Shown here one piece after another: positions 11,764-31,540 of a stretch of DNA of 32,000 nt. Origin of the DNA: Candidatus Saccharimonadota bacterium (lineage in GTDB: Archaea > Nanobdellota > Nanobdellia > Pacearchaeales > GW2011-AR1). Both the position numbers and the translations under genes were made by a program. The DNA lies in NCBI GenBank assembly GCA_017609205.1, contig JAFCEL010000001.1, positions 360,001 through 392,000 of the forward strand. Reading direction: 5' to 3'. Within the stretch, counting starts at the first letter, position 1. Each line of letters begins with the position of its first letter. The notes beneath the pieces were generated by a model. That model was not told where the DNA came from, did not search any database, and saw nothing but the letters and a program-made list of their open reading frames with translations.

Positions 11764-11799
11764 AATCTATTCCATAAAGAGGATTTTATATAATTTGTG

Positions 11800-11829
11800 A
11801 TAGAAGTTCGATTAAAAGGTGTTAAACGA
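11800..11829 (+). other. attI-like insertion point (G|TTAAACGA)
   Basis: GTTAAACGA at 11821-11829, 58 nt upstream of the recombinase start codon. It is the exact reverse complement of TCGTTTAAC (11983-11991) in the first attC-like site. Confidence 0.45.
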
Positions 11830-11984
11830 AATTTTTTGCCCCTATTTTTTTGGGTTTTCTTTTTTTTAGTCTGTCTTCGGCAGAATTGATTTGGGGCAAA
11901 AAACTCTGCGGAAAAATCAAAGATTTTTTCCTTGCCTCGCTGCGCTCTCACTCCACTTCGCTATCGCTTCGTTTCGTTCGGGTC

Positions 11985-12080
11985 GTTTAACAGCGATTAA
12001 GAGGTTCGCTTGTTGCACTTCGCTCTCCCAAATTTCTTCGGCTTCGCCTCAGAAACTTCTCTTAATCGCTCATGTTATCC
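11985..12080 (+). repeat. attC-like site 1
   Basis: R'' GTTTAAC; L'' CGATTAAGAG (11994-12003) is perfectly complementary to L' CTCTTAATCG (12059-12068); 5-nt spacer; G|TTATCC at 12074. Internal C(TTCG)G hairpins. Confidence 0.65.
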
Positions 12081-12104
12081 GAAATGCCGACGAAAACGCA
12101 AGCT

Positions 12105-12113
12105 TTTTAAATA
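12105..12113 (+). promoter_or_regulatory. TATA-box-like element of cassette 2
   Basis: TTTTAAATA ends 20 nt before ATG 12133. Confidence 0.45.
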
Positions 12114-12132
12114 ATCAAATTTTATTTAATTT

Positions 12133-12774
12133 ATGGTTAAAGAAAAATCAAAAAATCTTACGATTTTTATCGCGGTCGTTGTAATATTAGTTTTGGCCAC
12201 TGGTTTTTTAACATATTCTTATACATTAAATCAATTTTCATCCTCACAAGAAGAAACACTTAATTTTTTTAAAGAATATTCTATTGCATTAAATAATATT
12301 CATATCGCTTCTGGTTTTTTAGATATCGCATTATTGAATTTGAATGCAGGAAATTCGTATGTTGAGACTGGCGAATACTATTATGAATTTGCGATAGATT
12401 ATTATGATACTGGAAAAGAACAGGTTTTGGATGCTAAAGAATTACTTAATAAAGCTAAAACAAAATTACAAAACCTGCAAACTAATGCCCCAAATTCTTT
12501 TTTCCAAGAGGATGTCGAAAAGCGAATAGAACAAGCAGATTCTTTAATTTCTGTTAGTAATGATTTATATTCTCTTCTTGATTACCAGAAGCAACAACTT
12601 TACGAAATTAATTATGGTTCTGAATCAAAGGCAACAGAATATTATAATAAATATAATGCCCTTATCCCAGAATTTAATAATAAACTAAAAAAATTAAGTG
12701 AAATCCAAAACCAGATTGATTTAAATTGGGACCAAGATTGGTATCCTACTTTCCAAGAAACAGCGACCGCTTGA
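12133..12774 (+). CDS. Hypothetical membrane-anchored protein (N-terminal TM, helical ectodomain)
   Basis: AT-rich coding-like ORF with hydrophobic LTIFIAVVVILVLATGFL near the N-terminus. I recognise no family motif. Confidence 0.6.
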   Translation: MVKEKSKNLTIFIAVVVILVLATGFLTYSYTLNQFSSSQEETLNFFKEYSIALNNIHIASGFLDIALLNLNAGNSYVETGEYYYEFAIDYYDTGKEQVLDAKELLNKAKTKLQNLQTNAPNSFFQEDVEKRIEQADSLISVSNDLYSLLDYQKQQLYEINYGSESKATEYYNKYNALIPEFNNKLKKLSEIQNQIDLNWDQDWYPTFQETATA

Positions 12775-12859
12775 TTTTTCTTTTCGTCGGCACTCTGCGG
12801 ATTTTCTACGAAAATCCTTGCCCCATTGCATTCTCAAAATCCTTCGGATTTTTCGGGTC

Positions 12860-12954
12860 GGATAACAACGATTTAACGGAAAATCCCTTGCAGGAATTTT
12901 CCCAAATTTCTTCGGCTTCGCCTCAGAAACTTCTCTTAATCGCTCATGTTCGCC
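12860..12954 (+). repeat. attC-like site 2
   Basis: R'' GGATAAC is the reverse complement of the GTTATCC junction at 12074. The right half (12900-12950) is identical over 51 nt to site 1 (12026-12076). G|TTCGCC at 12948. Confidence 0.65.
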
Positions 12955-13080
12955 AAAATTTTCCCTTTGCCCTCCAGAGTCGGGTAAATCCTCACGCTGG
13001 TTTTGAGGTGCTTCCCTTAACGCTCCAATCCGAAATCGGAGGACATCGGATAATATCGCTGATTAAAGGAAATTTGAAAA

Positions 13081-13512
13081 ATGGATAAAGAAATAAAGTT
13101 TGAAGCATTTGACTTGAGAAAAGTAAGACCTCTCTTGTTGAAAATAGCAAAAGAGAAAGGTAAAACTTACGAAGAAGTTAAGAGAGTGTTTTACGAAAAG
13201 ATAGAAATTCCATACGCACCTCAAAGCGTATCGGACAAAGGAAAAACTCACGAGGGTGTTTTGAACACCACTCGTGCCGACTTCGTCGGTCGGCGAACAC
13301 CGAATAAACGGAAAAATGCTTTGGCTTCGCCAACCTGTTTTTTACAGGACGCATTTTTCTCAAATTCTTGCTCCGCAAGAACTTCGTTTATTCTATCCAT
13401 TAGTCGAAATTTAATTTGGTGCAAATTTGCCCGCCCCCTTAAGCGTGTGCTTAAACTCAATTATAATAATCTTTATATATATGAATCAATAACAGTCTTA
13501 TATGCCACTTAG
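13081..13512 (+). CDS. Small hypothetical protein; only the first ~55 codons look coding, the rest reads through attC-like site 3
   Basis: MDKEIKFEAFDLRKVRPLLLKIAKEKGKTYEEVKRVFYEKIEIPY is coding-like. From ~13245 the frame runs through the GC-rich repeat and across the 13399 junction without a stop. Confidence 0.35.
   Translation: MDKEIKFEAFDLRKVRPLLLKIAKEKGKTYEEVKRVFYEKIEIPYAPQSVSDKGKTHEGVLNTTRADFVGRRTPNKRKNALASPTCFLQDAFFSNSCSARTSFILSISRNLIWCKFARPLKRVLKLNYNNLYIYESITVLYAT
13292..13405 (+). repeat. attC-like site 3
   Basis: R'' GGCGAAC is the reverse complement of the GTTCGCC junction at 12948. L'' CGAATAAACG (13301-13310) pairs with L' CGTTTATTC (13385-13393). Inner stem GAAAAATGC/GCATTTTTC encloses two hairpins. 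Junction A|TTAGTC at 13399. Confidence 0.6.
13472..13479 (+). promoter_or_regulatory. TATA-box-like element of cassette 4
   Basis: TTTATATA ends 22 nt before ATG 13502. Confidence 0.45.
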
Positions 13513-13954
13513 ACAATATGCAGAATGGGTTGATGCACCCAGAACAAAAACTTATTTTCAAGAAGGTAGAGCAGGAATTTTAAGATTAGATGCTCATAAA
13601 GAGTTTTCTCCTGAGCATACATTAGATTTAGTTATTGCTAAAACAACTCTTTATGAAGATTGCAATATCTCCTCTAAACTCCTTCCTCTAGTTGTTGCAA
13701 TGTGGGAGAGGAAAGGAGATGAAAGACTTAATGACTTCTATTCTTTTGATAATAATGGCGTCTGCTTATCTCATGGTTATTCAAGAATGAAAAATGGTCA
13801 ACGAGTTGTAGATGAACAACACGATACAGATATAAGCAGACTTATTGAATATGGAGAAGTCATTAAAGATTTAATAGGAGATTATCCAATTCCTGCTCAA
13901 TTAGCAATGCACACGACAGTTATTGATTTAAGACAAAATACCTTAAGAGAATAA
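13502..13954 (+). CDS. Hypothetical protein
   Basis: 150-aa ORF that fills cassette 4 (13400-14177), with a TATA box at the standard distance. No motif recognised. Confidence 0.6.
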   Translation: MPLRQYAEWVDAPRTKTYFQEGRAGILRLDAHKEFSPEHTLDLVIAKTTLYEDCNISSKLLPLVVAMWERKGDERLNDFYSFDNNGVCLSHGYSRMKNGQRVVDEQHDTDISRLIEYGEVIKDLIGDYPIPAQLAMHTTVIDLRQNTLRE

Positions 13955-14058
13955 CGCACATGCTTTTTTCTTTTCCCACCCAATAAGCACCAAATTAAAC
14001 TCTTCGCCAGCCCTTCGGGACATTGCATTCTGGCTCGGTTTTTTCTACGAAAAAACTC

Positions 14059-14183
14059 TACTAACAGCGATTAAGACTCCACTCACTTGCAGTTCGCTAC
14101 GCCCTTCGGTTTTGTGGGTTGCCTCAAAACCTACGGGGAAATAAATCCTTCGGATTTACTTCTCTTAATCGCATATGTTGCTT
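14059..14183 (+). repeat. attC-like site 4
   Basis: R'' TACTAAC (5/7 complementary to the 13399 junction). L'' CGATTAAGAC pairs with L' CTCTTAATCG. Several C(TTCG)G / CTACG hairpins. G|TTGCTT at 14177. Confidence 0.55.
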
Positions 14184-14316
14184 GGCTTCGCCCAAATTTT
14201 TTCTTAATTATAACGGGCAGGGGCTTTTTAGTCCTTCGGACATATTTTTTATTCTAAAATAGAAATATTTAAATACTATTAAATTAATATTTTAATAATA
14301 TTCAGAAGATGATAAA

Positions 14317-14484
14317 ATGGTAAAAATTCAAAAAACAAATACGGGTCAATCAATAATAACCATCCCTCGAAGTATTATGAGGGCTACTGGCTGGGGAAGA
14401 GGGACCGAATTAATGCCTTATGTGGATGAAGAAGGAAAACTTATTCTGAAAGAGATAAAAATTAAAAAGAGGATGAGAAGATGA
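14317..14484 (+). CDS. AbrB/SpoVT/MazE-type swapped-hairpin DNA-binding protein (55 aa, below the ORF-track cut-off)
   Basis: Hand translation: MVKIQKTNTGQSIITIPRSIMRATGWGRGTELMPYVDEEGKLILKEIKIKKRMRR*. Its stop overlaps the dcm ATG (ATGA at 14481-14484). Confidence 0.6.
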   Translation: MVKIQKTNTGQSIITIPRSIMRATGWGRGTELMPYVDEEGKLILKEIKIKKRMRR

Positions 14485-15521
14485 ACAGTAAAAATCCAAT
14501 TGCAATAAGTTTATTCTCTGGCATGGGAGGACTTGACTTAGGACTAAAGAAAGCAGGCTATAAAATTGCTGTTCAACTTGATATAGATCACCATTGTATT
14601 GAAACGCTTAAAACCAATTGGCCAAGAGTCCCAAAAATACAAGAAGACATAGCATTTCTTACTGCAAGAAAGATTTTATCAAAAGCCAACCTTAGTAAAA
14701 GAAAAGTTGATCTTATCGCTGGAGGACCAAGTTGTCAACCATTCTCACGATCAAATGAAGGAAAACGAAAGGGGGTTAAAGATAGAAGAGGCAAACTTAT
14801 TTTTGAGTTTGCTAGGTTAGTAGACGAGATTCGACCCAAAGCATTTATTATGGAAAATGTTGCAGGACTGATATCTTCAAATAAAGGGAAAGATTTCAAG
14901 AAATTACTCAATTTTTATAATAAAATTAATTATCACATTCAATATCAAGTTCTAAATGCAGCTGAATATGGACTTCCACAGAAAAGAAAAAGATTATTTC
15001 TTGTCGGCTTTAGAAAGAAAACAAACTTTAATTTTCCAAATCCAACTCATGGCGAGGGAGATGGCTTAGCACCTTTCGTAACAAGCGGAGAAGTATTAAG
15101 AGATTTAGATGATGGTATAATCCATGATAGTACCGTTTCAATAGGTGGAAAACATGGTCATCTTATTAACGATATCCCCCCTGGAATGAATTATATTTAT
15201 TATACTGCAGAATATAACCCAAAAAATGCTATCTTTCGTAATAGATCAAAGTTCTGGACATTTTTATTAAAATTAGATCCTAAACAGCCCTCTACAACAA
15301 TCCAAGCAAGTCCTTGGAGTCATGTAGGTCCCTTCCACTGGAATAATAGACGACTAACTATTGCAGAAATTAAGCGGCTCCAAGGAATACCTGATAACTA
15401 CTTCGTATCGGGTGCCAGAGAAAAAGAATATACCTCACCAGCATGGAGACAGATAGGTGATGCTGTTCCTCCATTGCTTTCTTATGTTCTGGGGAAAGAA
15501 ATTAAAAAGATAATTTATTGA
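14481..15521 (+). CDS. dcm: DNA (cytosine-5)-methyltransferase
   Basis: Motif I FSGMGG, motif IV GGPSCQPFS, motif VI ENV, motif VIII QKRKRLF, motif X GDAVPP. Confidence 0.92.
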   Translation: MNSKNPIAISLFSGMGGLDLGLKKAGYKIAVQLDIDHHCIETLKTNWPRVPKIQEDIAFLTARKILSKANLSKRKVDLIAGGPSCQPFSRSNEGKRKGVKDRRGKLIFEFARLVDEIRPKAFIMENVAGLISSNKGKDFKKLLNFYNKINYHIQYQVLNAAEYGLPQKRKRLFLVGFRKKTNFNFPNPTHGEGDGLAPFVTSGEVLRDLDDGIIHDSTVSIGGKHGHLINDIPPGMNYIYYTAEYNPKNAIFRNRSKFWTFLLKLDPKQPSTTIQASPWSHVGPFHWNNRRLTIAEIKRLQGIPDNYFVSGAREKEYTSPAWRQIGDAVPPLLSYVLGKEIKKIIY

Positions 15522-17422
15522 TCACCATACTTATCCAAATATTCTTTAATTCTTTCATTTGCATTAGGAAATTTAACGGGCAGAGGGATATTCGTTAGTC
15601 CTGTAGCATCATAGCTAAACAGCATCCATTGTCCTTTTGTAAATGTTAGAGTTCTCTGTATCATCTCTTTAGATGCTCCGAAAGCTTTACCAATAGTGTC
15701 CCTATCATACTCTCTTGGTAATTTTGATAACAAGAAAGTATGAGGTTGAGCCAGTATAGACGTATCAAGATAGGCTACTCTTTGTGTTGCTAATGCAAGA
15801 CCTAGACCAAACTTTCTACCTCTTCTCGCAAGTAAAGTGCTCGCACTTCTTGATCGTTGGTAACTTTCGCCTCCTGATTGTGGTATGAATTCATCAGCTT
15901 CATCGTAAAGGAAGAGCACATGCGGATCAATTTCTCCACTTGTTCTTCTCCTTCTGAATGCATAGTTTACCATATGACTTGAAAAATCTCTCAAGTCATC
16001 GTCACGATTGCTCTGAACAATTATAAGTGCAGGTTTTGACTTATCGGTAAACGTTCGGTAGATTTGATCCATAGAAAGTATGGCCTTCTCAGGCAATGGT
16101 TCTTCTTTTGTTGCACTGAGATATCCTCGTACTACCTCTTGCATCCCGGAAAGTATTATTCTCCCTGTATCATTGAGTCTTACTGTCCGTTCAGTTGGTG
16201 CTCTGGGAGCAGTTCCCATTAAACTTTGCTGAACAGATTCTCCTCCTTCTTGTCTGGTATAGTCTACCAAGGCATTGTCTTGAAGTGCCTGGCCTATATC
16301 GGCATCTAATGCTTGAAGTTGTTGCTCAGAAACAGGATCAACACCTGAACCTCGCAGGTGTTCATCAATCATTCTACGAATATGAAACTCATTATTCCTT
16401 GAACCACTTTGTATTCTTTCACTGAGTTCACTCCTAAGATCACTAATTGTAGGGTTTGTAGAACCTGTACTGAATATTCTTATTTTATTTGCTTTCAGGA
16501 TTTCTTTGAAAAGTGGCAAATACTTGTCTTGATAAGGAATTAACTCTTTAGGTAGGAGGAGGGTTCTGACAATTGATTCAGCAGCTTCGTTTAACTTGGA
16601 TTCATCACCACGTATATAATCCTCTACTGCTTGTGAACCTGGCAAAGAGTCTTCTGTTACACATAAGATATATGCTTCATCAATCTTATGAATCAAATCA
16701 ATTAATAAGCCACTATACTCAGTCATAAGATCAAAGAGTACAACCTTATTTTCTTTAGCAACTGAAATAAGGTTACTTATAAGATTACTTAGCAGATTAG
16801 ATTTACCAGCTCCTGTGAAACCAAAGACTCCAAAGTGAGTTCTCAGTAAATCTTCTGTGCTTAGTTTGACACCAACTTTATCATTCAATATCAAAGTACA
16901 AGGTTCAATAGTCGGAACTTTTTCAGAGAGCAGCCCTTTATTAACAATTTGGTTTATTTGTTCATCTGTAAGTAAATGGGCGTCTTCACCTATCATAGGA
17001 AGACTCTCATCAACGTCAATAGATGCTTTATTATCTTGAGTAATAGTTAGTTGCAATCCTGTTGATATCGCTTCTGCCTTAATTTTAGTTGTTTGTTCAA
17101 TAGGTTCTTCTTGTTCCCAATCGACTTTAGCATTCTTTGCTGCTTCTATTACAAATCCTGGAAAGGCTCTTTCAGTGTCTCTTGATGAAACTCCGAGAGC
17201 ATAATGTTTAGGGAACACTGAAACAAGTTCAAGAATGCTGAAAGTGTTGTCCCCATTAACTCCACTATAATTTCTTACAGCGACAAAACTCCCTACTTTG
17301 ATTTCGCCGACAAACATTTTTGTATATGGAAACCATACAGCATAACTTAACTCCGCAGTACTTTCTGTGTCCATTGACACAACGACTCCTTTTGGACTAT
17401 CTTTAAAGTATTTCATTTTCAT
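15515..17422 (-). CDS. HerA/DUF87-like hexameric ATPase
   Basis: N-terminal barrel-like region (GEIKVGSFVAVRN), Walker A HFGVFGFTGAGKSNLL, Walker B VLFLYDEADEFIP. The 3' end overlaps the dcm 3' end by 7 nt. Confidence 0.7.
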   Translation of the reverse strand: MKMKYFKDSPKGVVVSMDTESTAELSYAVWFPYTKMFVGEIKVGSFVAVRNYSGVNGDNTFSILELVSVFPKHYALGVSSRDTERAFPGFVIEAAKNAKVDWEQEEPIEQTTKIKAEAISTGLQLTITQDNKASIDVDESLPMIGEDAHLLTDEQINQIVNKGLLSEKVPTIEPCTLILNDKVGVKLSTEDLLRTHFGVFGFTGAGKSNLLSNLISNLISVAKENKVVLFDLMTEYSGLLIDLIHKIDEAYILCVTEDSLPGSQAVEDYIRGDESKLNEAAESIVRTLLLPKELIPYQDKYLPLFKEILKANKIRIFSTGSTNPTISDLRSELSERIQSGSRNNEFHIRRMIDEHLRGSGVDPVSEQQLQALDADIGQALQDNALVDYTRQEGGESVQQSLMGTAPRAPTERTVRLNDTGRIILSGMQEVVRGYLSATKEEPLPEKAILSMDQIYRTFTDKSKPALIIVQSNRDDDLRDFSSHMVNYAFRRRRTSGEIDPHVLFLYDEADEFIPQSGGESYQRSRSASTLLARRGRKFGLGLALATQRVAYLDTSILAQPHTFLLSKLPREYDRDTIGKAFGASKEMIQRTLTFTKGQWMLFSYDATGLTNIPLPVKFPNANERIKEYLDKYGDQ

Positions 17423-17428
17423 ACCCTC

Positions 17429-19243
17429 CTATCGGAAACTATCACGTATTTCCCTGAATGTTTTTGACAACGGTCTTGATTTGAATGCCCATTCGCTTGA
17501 CTGTAATAAACCAATTACTCTTCTTTTAAGAGATTTTGCACCCCAGTCAGCTTGATGAAGTGGATCAGGGTATCCTAATGCTTCGGGGAAGTGATTACGA
17601 ACCAAAACAGCTAAAAGATACATTGTGAGTGTTTGCAGACGAGGTGTTCCAGTTGTTTCATCATATAGTAATGGTTGTATCTCACCGAACCAATCTGTCT
17701 TTATTTTAAAGTTTGCTGAATCCTTATCATCCCATCCAGGATATGCTAATCTATCTATAAAAAGTGCATGTGAAGAAATATTTCTATCTGGAGATAAGAA
17801 GAATTGAGCAAGTGATCTTAAAAATATACGTTCTGGCCTAGTGACTTCTCCTCTACTTGTATCGTAACCCTTACTTTTCCAAGTTTTAGATTTTTCATCA
17901 TATTCGCTGTGCATTGTCATAAAGCATGAATCAAAATCGTAGGTGCACCAAGGAGTATTAAGATTCAAATCTATATTTGGAAGAAGTTCGGCAATTGCTC
18001 TATCTGTAAGAGGTAATGAGAAATGTTTTATTTGATCGCCCCCTCTTACTTGATTTATTGAGCCTAAGAAGTTTCTATAAAAGAAGCGAGACATAGAATC
18101 TTTTACAATACCTATCAAAAGTATCTTTCTTTCCCAACATCTCTCGACCAAGGCTCTTAATCCAATGCCCGCGAGAAACATGATATCTCTAGGGGAAAAA
18201 TATTCTAATTCATCCGAATCACGTAACTTGTAACATACTCCGTGAGGGTCTTTCTTTTTGAATAAATTTTCGCAGATACTCTCAAATATTCTTTGTGACT
18301 TCTTCCACGAAGTCCTTGGGTCTACTGTGAACTCGAATGTTTCCGTTGAAGGATCATATTTCCCTGCTTTTTTGTCTTGTAAGAACTTTGCACCAGCCTT
18401 GAAATTTTCTAATGGGAATTTAGGGCAGTCTTTTGCAGAGATCTTCCTTCTCTGTTTCCATGTTGCTTCAGCAATTAATCTGAAGTGTGGCTGGAATTTT
18501 TTAGTTGATGGGATATCTAAAATTTCATTAAATGGATGTGCAAGAGAAACTTCCATGTCGGCTTCTGTTAAAAACTCACCTTGAAAATCTCCTCTACCTA
18601 GAGTTAGTGATGACGAACTGAAACTGGTATTTCCCATAACACCGCCTATACTGTTATCAATTAGAAGAACACGGGGGCATTCAACTGCGGAAGATTTTGC
18701 TAAATCATAAGCTAAATATATCTCTGCTAATTGCATTATTTTTGTGTGTAAAGATGAAACTTGAGCTATTTCAGAATCTGATCTAAATATTGGAGTTTCG
18801 TTTGCTTCGTCTTGTTCTGTAACGCCATGCATTACGTCTGGTGGGATTGGAACAAATGCAACCATTGATACATCTCTGTTGAGTTCCCATCTTTGGTATC
18901 TTATTTTTCCTCCTGGCTCTGAAAAGGAGATCGTTCCTTTAGAACCATAAGCTCCTCCGTAAAAAGAAATGAAGTTTGCCGATTCTTCTTTGTGACAACT
19001 TGCATCTATGGCTACAAAAGATATCTCGGACGTTTCAAAGAAATTCTCTGCCAAACGCTTAATTTCAAGTCTTTTAATTTGATCCTTGAAATCATCTGAG
19101 TATGATCTCACAAAGTGTTTAATTAATTCATCATACCTTTTCCTAAGTGATTTAGAGTGAAATTTAAGACGAGTCTCATACTCAGCTTGTGAACTTTCGA
19201 GACTTTTCCGGTATTGGTCATATACTTTTGAAATCTCTGACAT
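17429..19243 (-). CDS. NurA-like nuclease (large, 604 aa)
   Basis: Ordered motifs FVAIDAS, VLLIDNSIGG and LIGIVKDSMSR resemble the NurA series (xDGS, xDGSL, GxSKxS). It sits 6 nt upstream of the HerA-like gene. Confidence 0.5.
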   Translation of the reverse strand: MSEISKVYDQYRKSLESSQAEYETRLKFHSKSLRKRYDELIKHFVRSYSDDFKDQIKRLEIKRLAENFFETSEISFVAIDASCHKEESANFISFYGGAYGSKGTISFSEPGGKIRYQRWELNRDVSMVAFVPIPPDVMHGVTEQDEANETPIFRSDSEIAQVSSLHTKIMQLAEIYLAYDLAKSSAVECPRVLLIDNSIGGVMGNTSFSSSSLTLGRGDFQGEFLTEADMEVSLAHPFNEILDIPSTKKFQPHFRLIAEATWKQRRKISAKDCPKFPLENFKAGAKFLQDKKAGKYDPSTETFEFTVDPRTSWKKSQRIFESICENLFKKKDPHGVCYKLRDSDELEYFSPRDIMFLAGIGLRALVERCWERKILLIGIVKDSMSRFFYRNFLGSINQVRGGDQIKHFSLPLTDRAIAELLPNIDLNLNTPWCTYDFDSCFMTMHSEYDEKSKTWKSKGYDTSRGEVTRPERIFLRSLAQFFLSPDRNISSHALFIDRLAYPGWDDKDSANFKIKTDWFGEIQPLLYDETTGTPRLQTLTMYLLAVLVRNHFPEALGYPDPLHQADWGAKSLKRRVIGLLQSSEWAFKSRPLSKTFREIRDSFR

Positions 19244-19412
19244 CTTTAACCTCGCCCTCGGTTTTTATCTGATTTTTATTTAATTCCTCAACCATAAAAT
19301 TTTCAAACTGCTTTGACAGAATAATGCCTTTTTGCTCGCAGTATTTCCTGTATTCTTCGTAAACTTTTTCTTCCACACTAAGCGAAACAGTCTTTTTTGC
19401 CATATTCATCAA
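19218..19412 (-). CDS. Ribbon-helix-helix (CopG/Arc-like) small DNA-binding protein
   Basis: KKTVSLSVEEKVYEEYRKYCEQKGIILSKQFENFMVEEL has a beta-strand plus two-helix pattern. First gene of the RHH-NurA-HerA operon, overlapping the NurA-like start. Confidence 0.5.
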   Translation of the reverse strand: MMNMAKKTVSLSVEEKVYEEYRKYCEQKGIILSKQFENFMVEELNKNQIKTEGEVKDVRDFKSI

Positions 19413-19604
19413 CCCATTTATGTATATATAAGCTTAAATGTAATTCTTTATAAATTTAACGACTTTGTTCCTTAAATTTCTCACCCACACTTTGCTCCCG
19501 CCAGTTCTTTTTCAGAAAAAGAACCAAAAACAAAAGCCCCTGCCCTGTCCTTCGGACATATTGCCTGCCTTCGGCAGTAATTTATATCAATTAAGAAAAA
19601 ACTA

Positions 19605-19668
19605 CGGCAACAAAAAATTTTCGGCGCCCTCGCGACTTTGATTTTTTCGGCTTCGCCGAACGTTGCAC
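19605..19668 (+). repeat. Possible short attC-like site (weak)
   Basis: CGGCAAC ... TTCGGCG / CGCCGAA ... G|TTGCAC. GCAAC/GTTGC would pair, and it partly matches the TTGCTT cassette start at 14178. Confidence 0.3.
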
Positions 19669-19699
19669 TAAAAATCAATCCTTCCCTTCGGTCAGGAGA

Positions 19700-19826
19700 A
19701 ACTAACAGCGATTTAACGGTTCCGCTCCGTTGCACTCGCTCACCCATATTTTTTCCTACGGAAAAAACACTCGAGGTCACTTCGTTCCACTCGAGCCCTT
19801 CGGGTCGCTTAATGCGGATGTTAAGT
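19700..19826 (+). repeat. attC-like site 5
   Basis: R'' AACTAAC, AG spacer, CGATTTAACGG. Internal hairpins TTTTTTCC-TAC-GGAAAAAA and CTCGAG..CTCGAG. G|TTAAGT at 19820. The L arms are poorly complementary (mosaic). Confidence 0.5.
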
Positions 19827-20534
19827 TCAATTTGCCCCAGAGTCCTTAGGAAGTTGCGGTAATGCTTTAACATATCGTGATACAACATCACAAAAAGAAT
19901 TCTCATCACTTGAAGAATTAATACGATGGAAATGAATTTTAGGATCTTGAGTTATGCCAAAAACTTCATATTTTCTTTCTCCCGTGGGAGGAAAACCAAA
20001 AACTTGTAAAGGAATTCCTCTATATTTGGAATAAGCAAAACTTAGTGGACATTCATACCCTGATTGAACTAAAAGATCCTTAATTGGTTTCGCTGATACT
20101 GGAACTCTGTAGGGAATTATGTTGATATTCTCCCAAGCATGTGCAATATCTTTTCCTAATTCACCTGAAGTATTATGATTCAAATCGAATTCCAATAAGT
20201 ATACTAAATCTCTATTCACAGGATCAAGTTCCCGTGGAGATATTTTTCTTACACTATGATTTGGACCTTCTGATAAAAAATCAGGCACATGATAATCAGG
20301 AACTGCAATGATCCCATATCTTCCAGCAACATCTCCAGTAGTTTGAGGAAACTCTATTGCAATAATTCCTTCTTTTAATGGAATTTGACCAAAAAATGGA
20401 ACACTAACCATTGTTTGTATTATTGAAGTAGGAGTCATCAATTTATCCATAATCATCTTATCTGAATATGCAAAAAAATATCTTTGGTATTTTGGACCGC
20501 TTCTTTTGGTTCTACTTTTCTTCTTCTTTGGCAT
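19827..20534 (-). CDS. Hypothetical protein (start moved to MPKKKK)
   Basis: The first 25 codons of the track ORF lie in the repeat. ATG 20534 has a TATA box 20 nt upstream. No family recognised. Confidence 0.5.
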   Translation of the reverse strand: MPKKKKSRTKRSGPKYQRYFFAYSDKMIMDKLMTPTSIIQTMVSVPFFGQIPLKEGIIAIEFPQTTGDVAGRYGIIAVPDYHVPDFLSEGPNHSVRKISPRELDPVNRDLVYLLEFDLNHNTSGELGKDIAHAWENINIIPYRVPVSAKPIKDLLVQSGYECPLSFAYSKYRGIPLQVFGFPPTGERKYEVFGITQDPKIHFHRINSSSDENSFCDVVSRYVKALPQLPKDSGAN

Positions 20535-20564: not shown

Positions 20565-20625
20565 TGTACGGACTCTGGGGCAAACTCTGCGGACGCAGTT
20601 TTCCCACACTGCGTATGGGAAAAGA

Positions 20626-20745
20626 ACTTAACAGGGCTTAAAGGGTTCGAAACGACCGGCTTCGCCTATTTTGCCAAGCAAAATTCGTTTCTCTCCCAAA
20701 TTTTTTGTCTGCGACAAAAAACTTCCCTTAAGCCCGATGTTAAGT
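20626..20745 (+). repeat. attC-like site 6
   Basis: R'' ACTTAAC is the reverse complement of the GTTAAGT junction at 19820. L'' GGGCTTAAAGGG pairs with L' CCCTTAAGCCC (one bulged base). G|TTAAGT at 20739. Confidence 0.6.
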
Positions 20746-20805
20746 TCAATTGAGTTCTCGCTTAATATTAAGAAACGGGAAGGGGGCTTAGTCCCTGCGG
20801 GACAG

Positions 20806-20935
20806 ATAGTTTCGGCTTCGCCTCGCAGAAAAATTTCTCTTAACCGACCAACAAAAAAAGAAAACCAAATTTTCTTTCAGAAAATTCTGTCTAACATTGG
20901 TTAAGAAGTTCGCTTTCGCTCTCCCAAATTTTTCT
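20806..20935 (+). repeat. Degenerate right-half plus left-half attC-like modules
   Basis: TTTCGGCTTCGCCTC..CTCTTAACCGA (right-half-like, no GTT), then an A-rich 45 nt, then GTCTAAC-AT-TGGTTAAGAAG-TTCGCTTTCGCTCTCCCAAATTT (left-half-like). Homologous to 23040-23140. Confidence 0.4.
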
Positions 20936-20964
20936 AAGAGTTTGAGGCTGAAAAAAAGAAGTAT

Positions 20965-20973
20965 TTTTAAATA
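20965..20973 (+). promoter_or_regulatory. TATA-box-like element
   Basis: TTTTAAATA ends 22 nt before ATG 20996. Confidence 0.45.
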
Positions 20974-20995
20974 TTAGAACATATTTATATTTATT

Positions 20996-22678: not shown

Positions 22679-22842
22679 CAGCCCCCAACTCTAATTTTTA
22701 AAAGATACAACGGCACTCTCTCTTATTAATATATTTTCTGACGGCTTCCCGCCGTCCCAGAGTTCGTTTTAACTTCTCCGTTCGCTACGCTCACTCCGAC
22801 CACGCCTTGCAGGCTCTCACTCCATTTCATTCCGTTCGGGAC

Positions 22843-22929
22843 GCCTAACAGCCGTTAAAAGAGAAATTCCTGCGAAATTTCTCCAAATTTTTCCCTTCGG
22901 GAAAAACTTCTTTTAACGGCATATTAGTT
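22843..22929 (+). repeat. attC-like site 7
   Basis: R'' GCCTAAC (the classical inverse-core sequence). L'' GCCGTTAAAAG is perfectly complementary to L' CTTTTAACGGC. TTTCCC-TTCG-GGAAA hairpin. Junction A|TTAGTT at 22923. Confidence 0.55.
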
Positions 22930-23039
22930 TCAATTGCAAATTCTCTAAATTGTTGAGTTGAAAAATAGGAGAGGACACTTTAAAACCCCCGACCACCCGC
23001 CCCTAAATTGAGAGGGGTTGCTTATTAAAAAGAAAAATC

Positions 23040-23140
23040 CTTCGCTTAACCTCAACAAAACAAAAAAGAAAAAATAAAATTGCTTCGCAACTTTATCTAA
23101 CATTGGTTAAGCGGTTTCGCTTTGCTACACCCAAAGATTT
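23040..23140 (+). repeat. Degenerate right-half plus left-half attC-like modules (paralog of 20806-20935)
   Basis: CGCTTAACC (23043-23051), then an A-rich stretch, then ATCTAAC-AT-TGGTTAAGCG (GGTTAAGCG is the reverse complement of CGCTTAACC). Confidence 0.4.
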
Positions 23141-23160
23141 TTCTAACGGGCGGCTTTTAT

Positions 23161-24330
23161 TTAGTATCCTGCATAACTTTGTGTTAGAACTAAATTTCCA
23201 CTAGAATCTCTTAAAAATAAAGTATCTCCATTATTATTCCAAATTGCCGCATAATTCCCTGATGTTCTTCCCCAATATAATGCAGAATCTGTATTTGTTC
23301 CTGTTCCTGTATAAAGTGTGAATGTTGCTCCGCCTTCAAATACAAATGATAGAATTGTATAAATATGAGAAGCAGTTTCATCTTTAATTGTCCAACCAGT
23401 CATATCGATAGAATAAGAGCATCTGTTCCCGAAAGTAACATATTCATCATTTAAATTATAGTTATCATTTCCAGCCGCATTAAAATGGAAATTAATTATA
23501 TAGATACATTGATCTTGAATATAATTTATCTCTTCAGTTTTCCATAAACAACCTTCATTTTGCTTTGCCTCGTTTTCTGCTTGTTCAAAGAGAGATGAAT
23601 ATTTTGTATTTGAGCCATATTCATACTTATGGGCAAGTCCTAATCTTACCATTTCCAGATTTACAAATGTATCATCAACATAAACATATCTTAATAGTCT
23701 TCCATATTGGTCTTTATCATTGACATCTGACTCTAAAGTTACTTGTTTTCCTAATACCATATTTTGTAATTCTTCTTTTGATTCTTCATAACATTTTCCA
23801 TTAACCTCGGGGGCATTTATTCCAATCAACCTAACTTCTTCTCCATTAGACAATTGGATTGAATCGCCATCTAGAACATATGAAACAGTTAATGTAGTGG
23901 TTTGTGGTTCTGAATTACATGCACCATCAAAGCAACCATATGGACACTTGTAATTTAATGTTCCCGTTCCAGATGATGTACAATAATGTTCCCGTACATA
24001 ATCTTTGTAAGCACCTGTACTACATTCATCATATTCTTTTGTCCCATCACTATGAGTAATATAACCTTTTGTATAATAATCTTTACCGCCATCAGAATCT
24101 GTGCACTTTACAGTTGTAGTTTGAGATATTGTTGTGTCTTGTTCGTAATATTGTTGCTGATAATAATCTTCTTGTTGCTGTTGTTGTAGTTGGTCATAGT
24201 ATTGATCATTATACAAATCATCGTACATTGCATGGCGATAATAAGAATTTCTAATAGCACTTGTCATAATCATTAAAAATAGGATTATCCAAAACCAAGT
24301 CCACCAACTACTTCCTTTCTTATTCATCAT
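23161..24330 (-). CDS. Secreted/anchored thermonuclease (SNase) fused to a lamin-tail domain
   Basis: N-terminal TM WWTWFWIILFLMIMT, Q/Y-rich tract, Cys-rich module. SNase core VLDGDSI..VRLIGINAPE..YGRLLRYV..LGLA. C-terminal LTD-like NAAGND..NDEYV..WTIKD..GD.L.L.D..G. Confidence 0.85.
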   Translation of the reverse strand: MMNKKGSSWWTWFWIILFLMIMTSAIRNSYYRHAMYDDLYNDQYYDQLQQQQQEDYYQQQYYEQDTTISQTTTVKCTDSDGGKDYYTKGYITHSDGTKEYDECSTGAYKDYVREHYCTSSGTGTLNYKCPYGCFDGACNSEPQTTTLTVSYVLDGDSIQLSNGEEVRLIGINAPEVNGKCYEESKEELQNMVLGKQVTLESDVNDKDQYGRLLRYVYVDDTFVNLEMVRLGLAHKYEYGSNTKYSSLFEQAENEAKQNEGCLWKTEEINYIQDQCIYIINFHFNAAGNDNYNLNDEYVTFGNRCSYSIDMTGWTIKDETASHIYTILSFVFEGGATFTLYTGTGTNTDSALYWGRTSGNYAAIWNNNGDTLFLRDSSGNLVLTQSYAGY

Positions 24331-26662: not shown

Positions 26663-26779
26663 TCCCAACCAAAAAAGATTATTTCATCTTCTTTCTTAAA
26701 AAGAAAGAAGCAAAAAAGCGGGCGGGCAACCTCTCAAAATTAAATGGTCGTCGGAAACAATCATCTTCCTCCCCCACCC

Positions 26780-26858: not shown

Positions 26859-27043
26859 GCATCGATAAATCCACCAAATTTAAAATTTCATTTTCCCCTC
26901 CTGAGACAGGAGAAAGCGCCTGAACGAGGGACTGATTATTTTATAGTGGCTTTGCCACATTTTGATCGCAAACATTCTTTGTTCGGATTAAATTAGGGGC
27001 TGACAACGAACAGGGCTGACTTTTGAAGACAAAAAGCAAATGC

Positions 27044-27052
27044 TTTTAAATA
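27044..27052 (+). promoter_or_regulatory. TATA-box-like element
   Basis: TTTTAAATA ends 22 nt before ATG 27075. Confidence 0.45.
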
Positions 27053-27074
27053 ACCATCTATTACTTTAAATAAA

Positions 27075-27968: not shown

Positions 27969-27971
27969 TGA

Positions 27972-29192
27972 GTGAAAAATGAAAAAATGCTTAATGATAT
28001 TAAAGTTGGATTTGTTAGCGCAACAAGTTTTATAAAAAGAGGGAATAAAAAAACTTTAGGATTTATTATTTTTGTTTTAGCTCTTATTTTTATAAATTTG
28101 GTTTTTTTGCCTTCAATGATTGGGGGTGTTATGGGTATGATGACTGGTTTTATGCAATACCCTTATGGAGATATTGTTATTGAACCGAGTAGGGATAGTC
28201 CTTATATAAATAATGTAGATAATGTTTTACAGAAAGTAAGAACAGTTCCCGATGTTAAATCTGCAACAAAAAGATTAGATGCAGGAGCTTCTATCCAGTA
28301 TAAACAAAAAGTTGTTGGTTCAACAATAACAGGAGTATTACCCTCTGAAGAATATGATATTTCAAACTATCCTTATATTATAAGTGAAGGAGAATTTTTG
28401 GGTGACCTTTCACGAGGTGAGATTATAATTGGCGCGATGCTTGTAGAAGGTTATTTTGGTTCTGAGATTTATGATAATCTAGGTGGAGTAAGAGTTGGTT
28501 CTTTCGTTAATGTAACATACAGCAACCAAGTCACGAGAACTTATAAAGTCAAAGGAATAATGGAAGGTACATGGGAGCTTACTGATTTAAATGCTTTAGT
28601 TCATTATAAAGATCTTAGAGATGTTTTGGGTATTAATGAAAGCGAGGCAACTAGTGTTGTTGTAAGAGTAAAAAATATTGATGATGTAGCCAAAGTAAAA
28701 GAAAAAATAATTGCTTCAGGGGTTAAAGAGCCGGTTTTTACAAGAGATGAAAAATCAGATGCTGTCTTAAGACAAGCAATGCAAAGTATCGGGCTAGTAA
28801 ATGTTATTACAAAGTATGTTAGTTTAATCGTCGGAGCTGCGTTAATTTTAATTATTGTTTATATTAGTGTCTTAAATAGAAAAAGGGAAATAGGTATTTT
28901 AAAAGCAGTTGGCATCTCTCCTCGTTCAATTGTAATTTCTTACGCATTTATCAGCATGTTTTATGTGCTGATAGGAGTGGTTGCGGGCTTGGTTTTGTAT
29001 TTTGCACTCATGTTTTATTTTCAGGCAAATCCAGTAATATTTTATGAAACTATAGAAATTATTCCTGAAATACAAGTAGGATTAATAATTAAAAATATTT
29101 TTACAATGCTCGCTTTGTCAATTATTGCTGGAATAATTCCTGCATGGAGGGTTTCAAAACAAAGTATGTTAAAGATGATTTGGGGGCGATAA
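27972..29192 (+). CDS. ABC transporter permease, MacB/FtsX type
   Basis: N-terminal TM, large extracytoplasmic domain, C-terminal three TMs with the RKREIGILKAVG FtsX signature. The start may be ATG 27987. Confidence 0.8.
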   Translation: MKNEKMLNDIKVGFVSATSFIKRGNKKTLGFIIFVLALIFINLVFLPSMIGGVMGMMTGFMQYPYGDIVIEPSRDSPYINNVDNVLQKVRTVPDVKSATKRLDAGASIQYKQKVVGSTITGVLPSEEYDISNYPYIISEGEFLGDLSRGEIIIGAMLVEGYFGSEIYDNLGGVRVGSFVNVTYSNQVTRTYKVKGIMEGTWELTDLNALVHYKDLRDVLGINESEATSVVVRVKNIDDVAKVKEKIIASGVKEPVFTRDEKSDAVLRQAMQSIGLVNVITKYVSLIVGAALILIIVYISVLNRKREIGILKAVGISPRSIVISYAFISMFYVLIGVVAGLVLYFALMFYFQANPVIFYETIEIIPEIQVGLIIKNIFTMLALSIIAGIIPAWRVSKQSMLKMIWGR

Positions 29193-29953
29193 TGAAACAA
29201 GAAAAAACAATAATCAAAATAAGAAATTTGCAAAGATATTATAAAACAGGGCAAGTTACAGTTAAAGCGCTGAATGGTGTTTCATTTGAAATAAAGAAAG
29301 GAGAGTTTATTGCAATTATGGGTGCAAGTGGGAGCGGGAAAACCACATTATTAAGAATACTTGGTTTAATCGACAAACCAACCAAAGGAGAATACACTAT
29401 TAACAATCTTAATGTAGTTGATTTGCCAGAAGAAGAAAGAAATTGTTATCGATTAACGCAGTTGGGTTATGTATTTCAAGATTATGCATTGATTAATGAA
29501 ATGAGTGCTTCTGAAAATGTTTATATTTTATCACTTATGGAAGGGAGATCAAAAAAAGAATCTCTTATTACCGCCAAAGAAGCATTAGGAAAGGTGGGGT
29601 TAGGGGATAAGTTAGACAGAATTCCAGACCATCTTTCTGGAGGAGAAAAACAAAGAGTTGCTGTTGCCAGAGCCATAGCCAAGAAGCCAAAAATTTTGTT
29701 TGCAGATGAGCCATGCGCAAATCTTGATACCCGCACATCTGAACAAGTTTTAGAAGTTTTGAAGACGCTCAATAAAAAATTTGGGCAGACAATTGTAATG
29801 GTAACTCATGAACCGTGGCATACTAAATATGTTTCAAGAGTAATTGAATTAAATGACGGGTTAGTCATCAAAGATAAAAAATTGCGAGGATTAATAAAAG
29901 ATAAAAAGTCGGCCCCTAAAAAATCTTCTTTTAGAAAAAGAAGCAAAACTTAG
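29192..29953 (+). CDS. ABC transporter ATP-binding protein (MacB/LolD-like)
   Basis: GASGSGKTTLL, LSGGEKQRVAVARA, ILFADEP, VTHE. ATG 29192 overlaps the permease TAA (TAATG) and is preferred over the track start at 29144. Confidence 0.92.
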   Translation: MKQEKTIIKIRNLQRYYKTGQVTVKALNGVSFEIKKGEFIAIMGASGSGKTTLLRILGLIDKPTKGEYTINNLNVVDLPEEERNCYRLTQLGYVFQDYALINEMSASENVYILSLMEGRSKKESLITAKEALGKVGLGDKLDRIPDHLSGGEKQRVAVARAIAKKPKILFADEPCANLDTRTSEQVLEVLKTLNKKFGQTIVMVTHEPWHTKYVSRVIELNDGLVIKDKKLRGLIKDKKSAPKKSSFRKRSKT

Positions 29954-30006
29954 ATAGTCAGCCCCTCTACGAGAATAAAAACAAGTGTTTTCTCTTATAC
30001 GATCCT

Positions 30007-30102
30007 CTCTAACAGAAAATTTTAAACTCACGGGGGGCTTTTTTAGCCCAGCTCGTGCCTTCCGCTTCGCTTCGGAAACTTCGTTAAATTCCGATGTTAA
30101 GT
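30007..30102 (+). repeat. attC-like site 8 (with CACGAG hairpin module)
   Basis: CTCTAAC-AG-AAAATTTTAAAC ... CACGGG-GGGCT..AGCCC-AGCTCGTG ... CGTTAAATTCC-GAT-G|TTAAGT at 30096. Confidence 0.45.
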
Positions 30103-30131
30103 GAAATTCCGAACCCCTTAAAAACGAAATG

Positions 30132-30139
30132 TTTATATA
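30132..30139 (+). promoter_or_regulatory. TATA-box-like element
   Basis: TTTATATA ends 20 nt before ATG 30160. Confidence 0.45.
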
Positions 30140-30159
30140 TCAATTAATATTATTTTACT

Positions 30160-30717
30160 ATGGGCAAATTAGATTTTAAAACTGCGTTCAAATACCCTTT
30201 CAACAGGATGAAAGGATTATTAAACATATTATGGATTTTATTACCTATTTTTGGATGGTTTGCTTTAGGAGGATATGGCGTTAGAATTATCCAAGAATTT
30301 AGTAAAGGTAAATTTAAAAAATTACCTGTTCTTAAATTTGGTAGTGATATGAAATTAGGATTTTTTATGTTCCTAAAAAGTATTCCTTTTGTTCTTGCAT
30401 ATATTGTAATTCTTATCTTTGCCGAGAGAGTAGGAGGGCCTTGGACCGCAGGATTAACCAGGATTTTAGTAGAACTCTTTGTAATCCCAATATTGACTAT
30501 AAATTTTGTTAATAAAATGACTGTTGGTTCATTTTTTGAATTTGGAATACTAAAATCTGTTTTTAATAATTTAGGAGACTATATCATAACAATATTGAAA
30601 AGTATCTTGTTATTTTTAGTATATCTAGTTATGGTTATAATCTTAGTTGGTATCCCTGCTATGTCTTTTACTCAGAATATATTTTTAGCAGATTTTTACA
30701 GAAGAAGAATAAAATAA
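30160..30717 (+). CDS. Multi-pass membrane protein, DUF4013-like
   Basis: FKYPFNRMKGLLNILWILLPIFGWFALGGYGVRII resembles the DUF4013 N-terminal pattern. Four to five TM segments. Confidence 0.5.
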   Translation: MGKLDFKTAFKYPFNRMKGLLNILWILLPIFGWFALGGYGVRIIQEFSKGKFKKLPVLKFGSDMKLGFFMFLKSIPFVLAYIVILIFAERVGGPWTAGLTRILVELFVIPILTINFVNKMTVGSFFEFGILKSVFNNLGDYIITILKSILLFLVYLVMVIILVGIPAMSFTQNIFLADFYRRRIK

Positions 30718-30766
30718 TATTTTTCTTATAGGGGGTTCGGAACTCTGCGCTCACTTCGTTCGGGAC

Positions 30767-30885
30767 GCCTAACACGGCTTATGAGGTTCGCTTCGTTGCA
30801 CTTCGCTCTCCCAAATTGAGTTCTCAGCTCTGTTCCCTTTGGTCACGAGGAAAACTGAAACTTCGTTAAATCGCATATGTTTATT
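30767..30885 (+). repeat. attC-like site 9 (mosaic)
   Basis: R'' GCCTAAC. The left half resembles sites 1 and 7. The right half, ACTTCGTTAAATCGCATATGTT, is identical over 22 nt to site 10. G|TTTATT at 30879. Confidence 0.45.
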
Positions 30886-30958
30886 TCAATTGTTCGAAGT
30901 GCACCAATAATGTTAAAAACAAACATTTATTTACTTAAAATGATTTATATCAAATATA

Positions 30959-31288
30959 ATGAAAATAAATTTTATACCAAAAAGCAATCTAAGTAAATGG
31001 TCTGTTGGATTGATTATCATAACTCCAATATTATTCTACATGGGTATGTCGTTTGTAGGTTTTTATCAATCTGTTCCGGCTGGGAAAACAATACTCCATG
31101 ACATCATTGCCAGACCAGGATTAGCGCTATCAATGTTGGGGGGATTCTTTTCTGGTATTGCCGCTTTTTTTTGTGGTATAATTGGTATTATAAGAAAGAA
31201 AGATTATTCTGTTTTTGTATTTATATCCACACTTCTAGGTTTTTTTGTTTTGTTATGGGTTATTGCAGAGATTTTGTTCCCACACTAA
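30959..31288 (+). CDS. Small hypothetical membrane protein (3 TM)
   Basis: 109-aa hydrophobic ORF that fills one cassette. Confidence 0.5.
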   Translation: MKINFIPKSNLSKWSVGLIIITPILFYMGMSFVGFYQSVPAGKTILHDIIARPGLALSMLGGFFSGIAAFFCGIIGIIRKKDYSVFVFISTLLGFFVLLWVIAEILFPH

Positions 31289-31357
31289 ATGTGCCCATTG
31301 AAAAACTTCTTCGGCTCCGCCTAGACCACGCTGCGCTTTTGCCTATCGGCTCGGGGC

Positions 31358-31446
31358 GTATAACAGCGATTTAACTGTTTCGCTCGTTGCACTTCGCTCC
31401 ACCCAAATCGGCTAACGCCGACTTCGTTAAATCGCATATGTTCAAT
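31358..31446 (+). repeat. attC-like site 10
   Basis: R'' GTATAAC. L'' GCGATTTAAC pairs with L' GTTAAATCGC. G|TTCAAT at 31440. The 81-nt tail (31440-31520) is 78/81 identical to 20744-20824. Confidence 0.5.
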
Positions 31447-31540
31447 TGAGTTATCGCTTAATTTTAAGAAACGGGAAGGGGGCTTAGTCTCTGCGGGACA
31501 GATAGTTTCGGCTTCGCCTCAAAGTTTATAGGGGGCGTCT

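Follow-up and report, generated by a model that had tools for sequence, protein, structure and literature searches.

A probable integron-type cassette platform beside a XerA-family recombinase gene in a Pacearchaeota-type archaeon

We analysed a 32,000-nucleotide (nt) stretch of archaeal DNA (contig JAFCEL010000001.1, positions 360,001 to 392,000; hereafter the window), which holds a cassette array of ~20 kb (11,805-31,520) whose sites all lie in one orientation, divergent from the gene for a 272-residue tyrosine recombinase. We conclude that the array is probably a sedentary chromosomal integron-type cassette platform run by an archaeal XerA-family enzyme and not by an integron integrase (IntI). 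Integrons are defined by a specialised integrase, and an extra domain of that integrase is thought to be necessary for the handling of folded attC sites. An original prediction had proposed an integron-type logic for this locus, in which cassettes open at G|TT, carry their own 3' hairpin site and insert beside a divergent tyrosine recombinase; this logic holds, and it extends beyond the window to other loci (comparison loci and contigs carry numbers between L001 and L176). The window is AT-rich (~32% GC) and archaeal, close homologues of the recombinase carry the public labels Candidatus Pacearchaeota or Nanoarchaeota, and the host therefore belongs to the DPANN archaea and is of Pacearchaeota type. 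As integron criteria we took IntI, attI and attC as in Messier & Roy 2001 and IntegronFinder.

Cassette sites, junctions and insertion site

Ten sites in the array align over their full length in the order TTCGGG-nCGnnnAAC-AG-CGATTAAnAG ... CCCAAATTT ... AAACTTC-nnTTAATCG-CATAT-GTT-nnn-TTCAATT. With each site bounded by its AAC and GTT triplets they measure 81-119 nt, within the range of attC-type inverted repeats (~57-141 bp). Simple pattern scans for AAC, stem and GTT give ~10 matches per 32 kb of shuffled sequence and are uninformative by themselves, and a covariance model of 16 base pairs built from the ten window sites (R1) was used instead. Only these ten sites score above 66 bits in the window, together with two weak partial sites (Table 1), so that the array counts ten strong and two to three degenerate sites, and R1 had no match in 1.06 Mb of sequence around 80 unrelated Xer and IntI genes.

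The junctions between cassettes were scored by comparing the 6 nt after GTT at a cassette start with the 6 nt before AAC in the 3' site of that same cassette. All of the junction boxes listed in the original prediction are present on direct reading of the sequence: GTTAAACGA in the insertion site attI (11821-29) is the reverse complement of TCGTTTAAC at 11983-91 in S1, as are GTTATCCGA at 12074 of TCGGATAAC at 12858-66 in S2, GTTCGCC at 12948 of GGCGAAC at 13292-98, and GTTAAGT at 19820 of ACTTAAC at 20626-32, while ATTAGTC at 13399 matches TACTAAC at 14059-65 in part. The scores are 6/6 from attI to S1, from S1 to S2 and from S5 to S6, and 5/6 from S2 to S3 and from S3 to S4; the other window junctions score 1-3/6, with 2/6 for the composite 14192-19691 segment. 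Five of the 10-11 window cassettes reach at least 5/6 (permutation P=4e-5), and pairing R'' with the R' of its own site gives a sum of 26, against 38 for pairing by cassette. Over 28 cassettes at eight loci, 16 reach this score (permutation mean 1.85, P<1e-5), with 11 of 18 outside the window; in L175, L176 and L162 the rule is obeyed by 14 of 18. Taken together, 30 of the 46 cassettes from 11 loci obey the rule, and the same-site control reaches this score in 2 of 46, which bears out the proposal that the variable triplet co-varies across a cassette and not within a repeat. attI matches the first cassette in nearly every locus. Judged on sequence, each unit would be an integron-type cassette whose 5' TTRRRY is complementary to its own R''.

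The conserved attI sequence AAGTTCGATTAAAAGGTG|TT (also AAGTTCGATTAAAAGGTGTT) is found at a distance of 58 nt from the start codon of the recombinase gene. The site is an imperfect 11-6-11 palindrome with arms symmetric at 9 of 11 positions, which is the layout of archaeal dif, two imperfectly inverted 11-bp arms around a 6-bp spacer (PMC2958812; PMC3646895) that XerA cleaves at the spacer borders (Serre 2013, PMC3646895). The crossover probably falls between G11821 and T11822, that is at G|TT on the border of spacer and right arm, or AA|C on the bottom strand. L081 and L085-L092 all keep the left arm and spacer, L094, L096, L176 and L001 have related forms of them, and a right-arm half-site, TT-NNN-YSMAAT, stands at every cassette start.

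Insertion at this position is seen as polymorphism. A recombinase identical over its 272 residues (P0003) is encoded on seven contigs from different samples (L085/86/99, L087, L088/100 and L101), and the four compared directly (L085-L088) share 99.9% DNA identity over the gene, the DNA downstream of it and ~70 nt ahead of its start codon. The conserved site measures 20 nt, and after GGTGTT the seven contigs hold four unrelated sequences (CATTTCAATTTCC..., ATATTCAATATTC..., ATACGCAATTAAA... and ATACGCAATTCAA...). The original prediction had called for such a presence/absence comparison at G|TT in related genomes, and the contigs differ from exactly after GGTGTT onward.

The structure of the sites points to the bottom strand. 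Among 28 sites from eight loci the L''/L' stem is paired in 87% of cells, and 9 of its 11 pairs show compensatory changes (42 cells), a level of covariation reached in none of 500 shuffles and far above that of slid controls. Folded as single-stranded DNA (ssDNA), the sites show in order a short R stem (TAACA/TGTTA plus variable bases), a one-sided bulge of 2-3 nt, an L stem of 10-11 bp and a branched variable centre, and in 9 of 10 sites the bottom strand is the more stable when both are folded. In the ~4 kb of intergenic DNA of the array (11764-31540), CTTCG occurs 42 times and CGAAG once; 22 of the 42 lie in hairpins of at least 3 bp in triloop register (TTC on the top strand, GAA on the bottom), and none is in the cUUCGg tetraloop register of RNA. 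Hirao and colleagues reportedly described the C-GAA-G triloop as the central part of d(GCGAAGC), a mini-hairpin of very high stability. The 42:1 bias and the triloop register point to a function of the bottom strand as single-stranded DNA, and do not suit one in RNA or duplex DNA.

Arrays of the same kind stand beside recombinases 48-79% identical to that of the window. R1 sites number two in L081, one each in L087, L090 and L094/95, five in L091, six in L092, 2-3 in L096-98, three in L162, seven in L175 and ten in L176, and all of them lie upstream of the recombinase gene, in constant relative orientation and divergent from it. In L087 the insert is a single cassette with a PTPS gene, whose site R'' GATTATAAC matches the cassette start GTTATATTC; core genes, eIF-1A first, come directly after it. 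The far side of the array is bounded by ftsY in both L090 and L092, at 1.1 kb from xerA in the former and 8.7 kb in the latter.

The recombinase is of the XerA family

The recombinase reading frame (10945-11763, minus strand) was verified and encodes 272 residues. It scores 234.5 bits with the NCBIfam model NF040815 (recomb_XerA_Arch), above the cutoff of 220, and 179.5 bits with the integron integrase model TIGR02249, below the cutoff of 265 and in two separate pieces (model positions 4-203 and the C-terminus); Pfam finds Phage_integrase and SAM_4. The best match among solved structures is Pyrococcus abyssi XerA (4a8e, E 2e-48), aligned over its full length in a single stretch, and T. acidophilum XerA, also among the best, likewise aligns in one stretch. 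Alignment with Vibrio cholerae IntIA (VchIntIA, 2a3v) breaks in two, with residues 168-195 of the recombinase opposite IntI 173-242 and ~42 IntI residues unmatched; by this alignment these residues are the IntI-specific additional domain, and the recombinase appears as a protein without the IntI insert. By these comparisons the protein belongs to the XerA equivalog and does not have the IntI additional domain, in agreement with its earlier description as Xer-sized and not IntI-type. Homologues have 268-277 residues. The accession numbers of their cluster members carry no information on a second Xer gene.

An exact look-up of the window recombinase sequence matched no record. Scanning genome contigs with a profile of the recombinase alignment relied on generic motifs (LRHSFATHL, IQKLLGHK) and gave, among the matches listed, only relatives of at most 47% identity, which served solely as a negative control of ~1 Mb. 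The gene order xerA-SRP54-RIO-ParA-DHH-aIF2alpha is kept in L081, L090, L091 and the window, and the gene lies elsewhere in other relatives.

Proposed mechanism and alternative explanations

We propose that the recombinase binds double-stranded, dif-like attI just upstream of its own gene, where an 11-bp left arm is followed by a 6-bp spacer, the last two bases of which are TG, and by a right arm that opens with TT. A cassette would start with the right-arm half-site TT-NNN-YSMAAT and end in a site of 80-120 nt made up of R'' (..AAC), L'', a variable hairpin region, L' and G, such that R' and R'' become complementary in the excised circle. The single-stranded bottom strand may then fold into R'/R'' and L'/L'' duplex arms, 6 nt apart on one side and with 2-3 extra extrahelical nt on the other, and so mimic attI. 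Only the bottom strand would be exchanged, at AA|C (G|TT on the top strand), and replication would resolve the intermediate, as modelled on the integron attC x attI reaction and on XerC-mediated CTXphi integration. Each cassette would carry its own archaeal TATA-type promoter.

An alternative explanation, which we consider unlikely, is that Xer-exploiting elements have piled up in tandem at dif by double-stranded recombination, in the manner of integrative mobile elements exploiting Xer (IMEX) or of pdif modules, and that the hairpins are incidental. The dif-like 11-6-11 attI does adjoin the XerA gene, Xer genes of the candidate phyla radiation (CPR) in L002, L005 and L018 likewise have dif-like sites directly upstream, the 28-bp site is found alone in other contigs, and the spacers of adjacent junctions are sometimes identical (CTCATG at both S1 and S2). 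The geometry of the junctions tells against it. On the R''-L'' side of the sites exactly 6 nt separate AA| from the TTAA core, and on the L'-R' side there are 8-9 nt; looping out the 2-3 extra nt would bring the conserved ACTTCnnTTAA that precedes L' into line with the left arm of attI, AGTTCGATTAA, which plain duplex register does not. S1, read by eye, fits the half-site at 7 of 9 specified positions with the bulge removed, and the 11 nt to the left of the spacer in plain duplex register fit at only 2 of 9. The cassette-spanning complementarity of R' and R'', the covariation of the L stem and the 42:1 loop bias would have no role in a purely double-stranded reaction. Moreover, the spacers of attI (AAGGTG, AAGTTG) differ from those of the junctions (CTCATG, CCGATG, GCGATG), which disfavours a complete two-strand exchange and favours exchange of the bottom strand alone, completed by replication.

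Known systems of this kind resemble the array in part. Acinetobacter pdif modules likewise are accessory genes bounded by Xer-type sites and shuffled between replicons, but their sites are complete double-stranded 28-bp sequences in alternating orientation on plasmids, whereas those of the array are long structured palindromes, all direct, in the chromosome. For CTXphi-type IMEX, host XerC and XerD are said (in work attributed to Val et al. in 2005 and Das et al. in 2010) to integrate a folded ssDNA hairpin that mimics dif, with one strand pair exchanged, replication completing the reaction and elements piling up in tandem. The predicted folded site and the Xer recombinase would fit that scheme; CTXphi, however, is a replicating phage genome that uses both XerC and XerD, whereas here gene cassettes would be handled by one XerA at an attI that might be the host's dif. 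Pfam matches of the window proteins include no replication, transfer or morphogenesis genes in the cassettes. Viral contigs scanned for two attC cores and attI gave chance matches or none and no model match, and provide no evidence for viruses as cassette carriers. In archaeal XerA/dif systems (Cortez 2010, PMC2958812; Serre 2013, PMC3646895) the recombinase family, the site layout and cleavage at the spacer borders are shared with the array, but Thermococcales dif lies away from xerA and has no cassettes, whereas attI adjoins the recombinase gene and receives a new right arm with each incoming cassette. Archaeal dif by definition is one site per chromosome, at the terminus of replication, where the only Xer of the genome resolves chromosome dimers.

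We also considered that the array might be part of an IntI-type integron seen as a cluster of attC sites lacking integrases (CALIN), served in trans by an IntI encoded elsewhere or since lost, with XerA a bystander housekeeping gene. Archaeal integrons had been reported with IntI-type integrases, as the original prediction correctly stated: Ghaly et al. 2022 (Sci Adv, PMC9668308) describe them in 75 metagenome-assembled genomes (MAGs) with six IntIs, all with the additional domain. Their tables list the Pacearchaeales assemblies GCA_001872325.1 and GCA_017609115.1 with 2-3 attCs each and no IntI, so that attC clusters in this order are not new and standard attC models evidently recognise at least some sites of the order. 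The cargo spectrum of the archaeal CALINs is similar, and bacterial IntI1 recombines archaeal attCs (PMC9668308). That study accepted only additional-domain IntIs, termed the rest integrase-less, and includes no Xer partner, dif-like attI, or junction and polymorphism analysis; we found no paper that connects arrays of this type with XerA or with a dif-like attI, or that gives junction and polymorphism evidence as presented here. We regard service by an IntI as very unlikely, since the adjacency and orientation of recombinase, attI and array are kept in at least 11 loci with recombinases 48-100% identical, even where the flanking core genes differ, the crossover in attI falls inside a palindrome of dif type, the half-site motif of which is found again in the L and R boxes of the sites, attI and the first cassette fit each other at nearly all loci, and archaeal IntIs are very rare (6 in 6718 genomes; PMC9668308).

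That the sites are immobile intergenic repeats (REP- or MITE-like, or transcript 3'-end or terminator structures) beside a recombinase by chance can hardly be right, even though they are hairpin-rich, lie at gene 3' ends, often share conserved internal sequence and are in several cases degenerate, since an RNA or terminator role does not explain why the first 9 nt of a cassette are complementary to a site 0.25-2.8 kb downstream, repeats do not explain four attI alleles under one recombinase, the sites are restricted to one side of it, and the loops are in the DNA GAA-triloop register and not that of the cUUCGg tetraloop.

Several observations weigh against a XerA-run cassette platform. Catalysis by the enzyme, the ssDNA substrate, single-strand exchange and circular intermediates are inferences from sequence, and an IntI gene could lie elsewhere in the genome, the window covering only 32 kb. 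In L089 (JGI 3300033141), a sister assembly with the same locus as window 8779-20742 and three changes only, the recombinase gene has a 40-nt deletion (window 11138-11177) that cuts the protein to 195 residues. Six window junctions break the complementarity rule, and several sites are either mosaics, S2 and S5 among them, or present by half, as the original prediction had rightly cautioned for the distal junctions; part of the array has therefore decayed or been otherwise rearranged, and decay, missed sites or homologous recombination between similar sites are possible causes of the failure in the distal half. We did not find the unpaired central spacer of bacterial attC, nor its extrahelical bases, which lie inside L''; the asymmetry here is the 2-3 nt bulge between L' and R', and with unpaired bases placed there strand choice may work differently. 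Finally, attI-like 28-bp sites occur with no adjacent recombinase in L104, L123, L124, L130, L137 and L150.

The proposed XerA-run platform otherwise has much in common with bacterial sedentary integrons. With these, for example the Vibrio cholerae superintegron (VchIntIA; attC of the Vibrio cholerae repeat, VCR, type), it shares a divergent tyrosine recombinase, an adjoining attI and a G|TT crossover, an array in one orientation, imperfect palindromes of 80-120 nt in the order R''-L''...L'-R' that are alike within a genome, complementarity of R' and R'' that is restored only in the circle, toxin-antitoxin, restriction/methylation and membrane-protein cargo, and ORF-less and duplicated cassettes (ORF, open reading frame). 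It differs from them in its DPANN host, in a recombinase that scores as XerA and is without the IntI additional domain, in a cassette 5' end that is an 11-nt half-site where bacterial cassettes have just TTRRRY, and in cassettes that carry TATA-type promoters of their own and would need no common cassette promoter (Pc).

If this reading is true, the additional domain would be no prerequisite for cassette capture, and the reading would offer an explanation of why nearly all archaeal attC arrays seem integrase-less. It would connect three systems that are mostly regarded as separate, Xer/dif, ssDNA integration of the CTXphi type and integrons, and open the origin of integrons to experiment; in DPANN archaea, whose genomes are minimal, the arrays would be a main path by which defence genes, nucleases, transporters and peptide-modification clusters come and go, and the compact recombinase/site pair could serve archaeal genetic tools. 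A further step, which we put forward tentatively as a possibility, is that attI is the chromosome's own dif and XerA its sole Xer recombinase, so that these reduced archaea would capture and shuffle genes at the dimer-resolution site, with each cassette renewing the right arm and so preserving the function of dif. In that case the array would represent a living step from Xer/dif to integrons, either ancestral to IntI integrons or a convergent reinvention, and many integrase-less archaeal attC clusters would be served by XerA.

Cargo, promoters and further features of the array

Feature positions are collected in Table 1. To the left of the array lie genes for aIF2-alpha, a DHH/RecJ-like protein, a ParA/MinD ATPase, tRNA-Gln, a RIO kinase and SRP54; tRNA-Gln was the sole match in an Rfam scan of the window, Rfam having no attC family. 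GC skew, tried as a marker of the terminus, follows the coding strand and is uninformative on its position.

Table 1. Positions and properties of the recombinase gene, attI, attC-like sites and associated segments in the window
Feature	Position	Strand	R1 score (bits)	Remarks
XerA-family tyrosine recombinase, candidate cassette integrase	10945..11763	-		272 residues; profile and structure matches
attI, dif-like	11805..11832	+		Left arm AGTTCGATTAA (11805-15), spacer AAGGTG (11816-21), right arm TTAAACGAAAT (11822-32)
First cassette	11822-12074			ORF-less; closed by S1
S1	11977..12088	+	107.3	R'' TCGTTTAAC, L'' CGATTAAGAG, L' CTCTTAATCG, R' GTTATCCGA; DNA fold -16.3 kcal/mol bottom, -14.6 top
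S2, mosaic	12852..12962	+	84	Closes cassette of 213-residue ORF 12133-12774; right half identical to that of S1; 60-nt repeat D9 at 95%
S3	13284..13413	+	66.1	R' ATT in place of GTT; closes cassette of small ORF from 13081; bottom-strand fold z=-6.8
S4	14051..14191	+	66.8	Closes cassette of 150-residue ORF 13502-13954; 94-97% identical to sites in L092 and L096
Composite 5.6-kb 'cassette'	14192..19691	mixed		MazE/AbrB-like protein (55 residues) and C5 DNA methylase (346) by Pfam; on minus strand, HerA/DUF87 ATPase (635), 604-residue and 64-residue proteins
S5, mosaic	19692..19834	+	70.7	Degenerate L stem
S6	20618..20753	+	69.1	Closes cassette of minus-strand 260-residue ORF 19827-20609; bottom-strand fold -34 kcal/mol, z=-7.8; extra A in L''
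Partial site	20881..20987	+	19.9	Left half S1-homologous; no proper right half
S8	22835..22937	+	75.1	Closes segment of 303-residue DUF5655/NucS-like and 253-residue ORFs; bottom-strand fold z=-5.7
Partial site	23087..23198	+	15.1	Left half only; overlaps 3' end of minus-strand SNase-LTD gene
7-kb segment before S11				SNase-LTD nuclease, radical-SAM/SPASM peptide cluster, CARDB, FtsX and ABC ATPase by Pfam
S11	29999..30110	+	66.4	Closes 7-kb composite segment
S12, mosaic	30759..30893	+	87.7	Folds poorly (DNA fold z=+1.7); closes DUF4013 membrane-protein cassette
S13, last site	31350..31454	+	83.2	Closes 109-residue membrane-protein cassette
84-nt element after last R'	31437..31520	+		Direct repeat D3; 95% copy at 20741-20824 after R' of S6

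Further cargo consists of small uncharacterised proteins and membrane proteins. The array also contains a candidate cluster resembling those for ribosomally synthesised and post-translationally modified peptides (24502-26662), with a Cys-rich peptide of 72 residues (CKSCQCNCRLC), a peptidase-MA-like protein, a radical-SAM/SPASM enzyme and an 85-residue protein. L089 differs from the window in two further respects: ORF 13081 lacks 25 nt at its start, and there are 70 extra nt that provide a proper stop for the cassette-3 ORF ahead of S3; because of this stop, we regard the read-through of window ORF 13081-13512 across S3 as artificial.

At least five cassettes (ORFs 12133, 13502, 20996, 27075 and 30160) have a TATA-like box (TTTAAATA/TTTATATA) 27-31 nt ahead of their first ORF. 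They fit the earlier claim of a promoter in each cassette and are consistent with cassettes that are leaderless and self-promoted; judged on these predicted motifs, the cassettes do not appear to be the promoterless, Pc-dependent kind. A second motif family combines a G-rich box (GGGCAGGGGCTTTT or its reverse complement), a GTCCTTCGGAC hairpin and A(T/G)ATA(G)T, usually between the cassette start and the promoter; it is found at 14216-14247, 19532-19563 and 24372-24403, also at 20780-20810 and 31476-31506, and in L081, L085, L175 and L176.

The 84-nt element after the last R' contains a palindrome, CTTAATATTAAG, with a G-rich box and a hairpin. The element could represent either the right flank that attI had ancestrally or the 5' leader of a cassette, and the former would hint that two arrays have been joined. 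The regions of the two partial sites (20834-20910 and 23038-23116) look circularly permuted, in that an L'-like box (CTCTTAACCGA / CTTAACCT) is followed by an A-rich stretch of ~40 nt and a normal R''-L'' left half (TCTAACATTGGTTAAG). A candidate extra site spotted by eye at 26838-26984 was unsupported by the covariance model.

A metagenome scan with the attI pattern gave 73 matches, most of them chance matches of a 19-nt AT-rich pattern and ~13 apparently genuine. The 28-bp sites with no recombinase nearby carry a cassette-type right arm; that of L150 lies just after the gene for a 189-residue product, a candidate ribosomal protein L15e judged by its sequence alone, and in L130 one weak attC-like site lies 420 nt downstream. 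The sites directly upstream of the single CPR Xer genes (Patescibacteria) are of the classical dif-like form AATTCGTATAATATAC or AATTCGCATAATATGC, with two copies ~45 nt apart in L005.

Two observations concern the cassettes of relatives. In L176 an ORF-less mini-cassette of ~190 nt, with start GTTGTACGAAATTTTTTGC and site R'' TCGCACAAC, is present three times (~130-330, ~2130-2330 and ~4130-4330 in array orientation), one copy being at attI. L081 (1-268) and L091 (~6653-6921) share 270 nt, an attC-like site and its flank, at 97.8% identity, and as their recombinases are clearly different this suggests recent cassette exchange between lineages.

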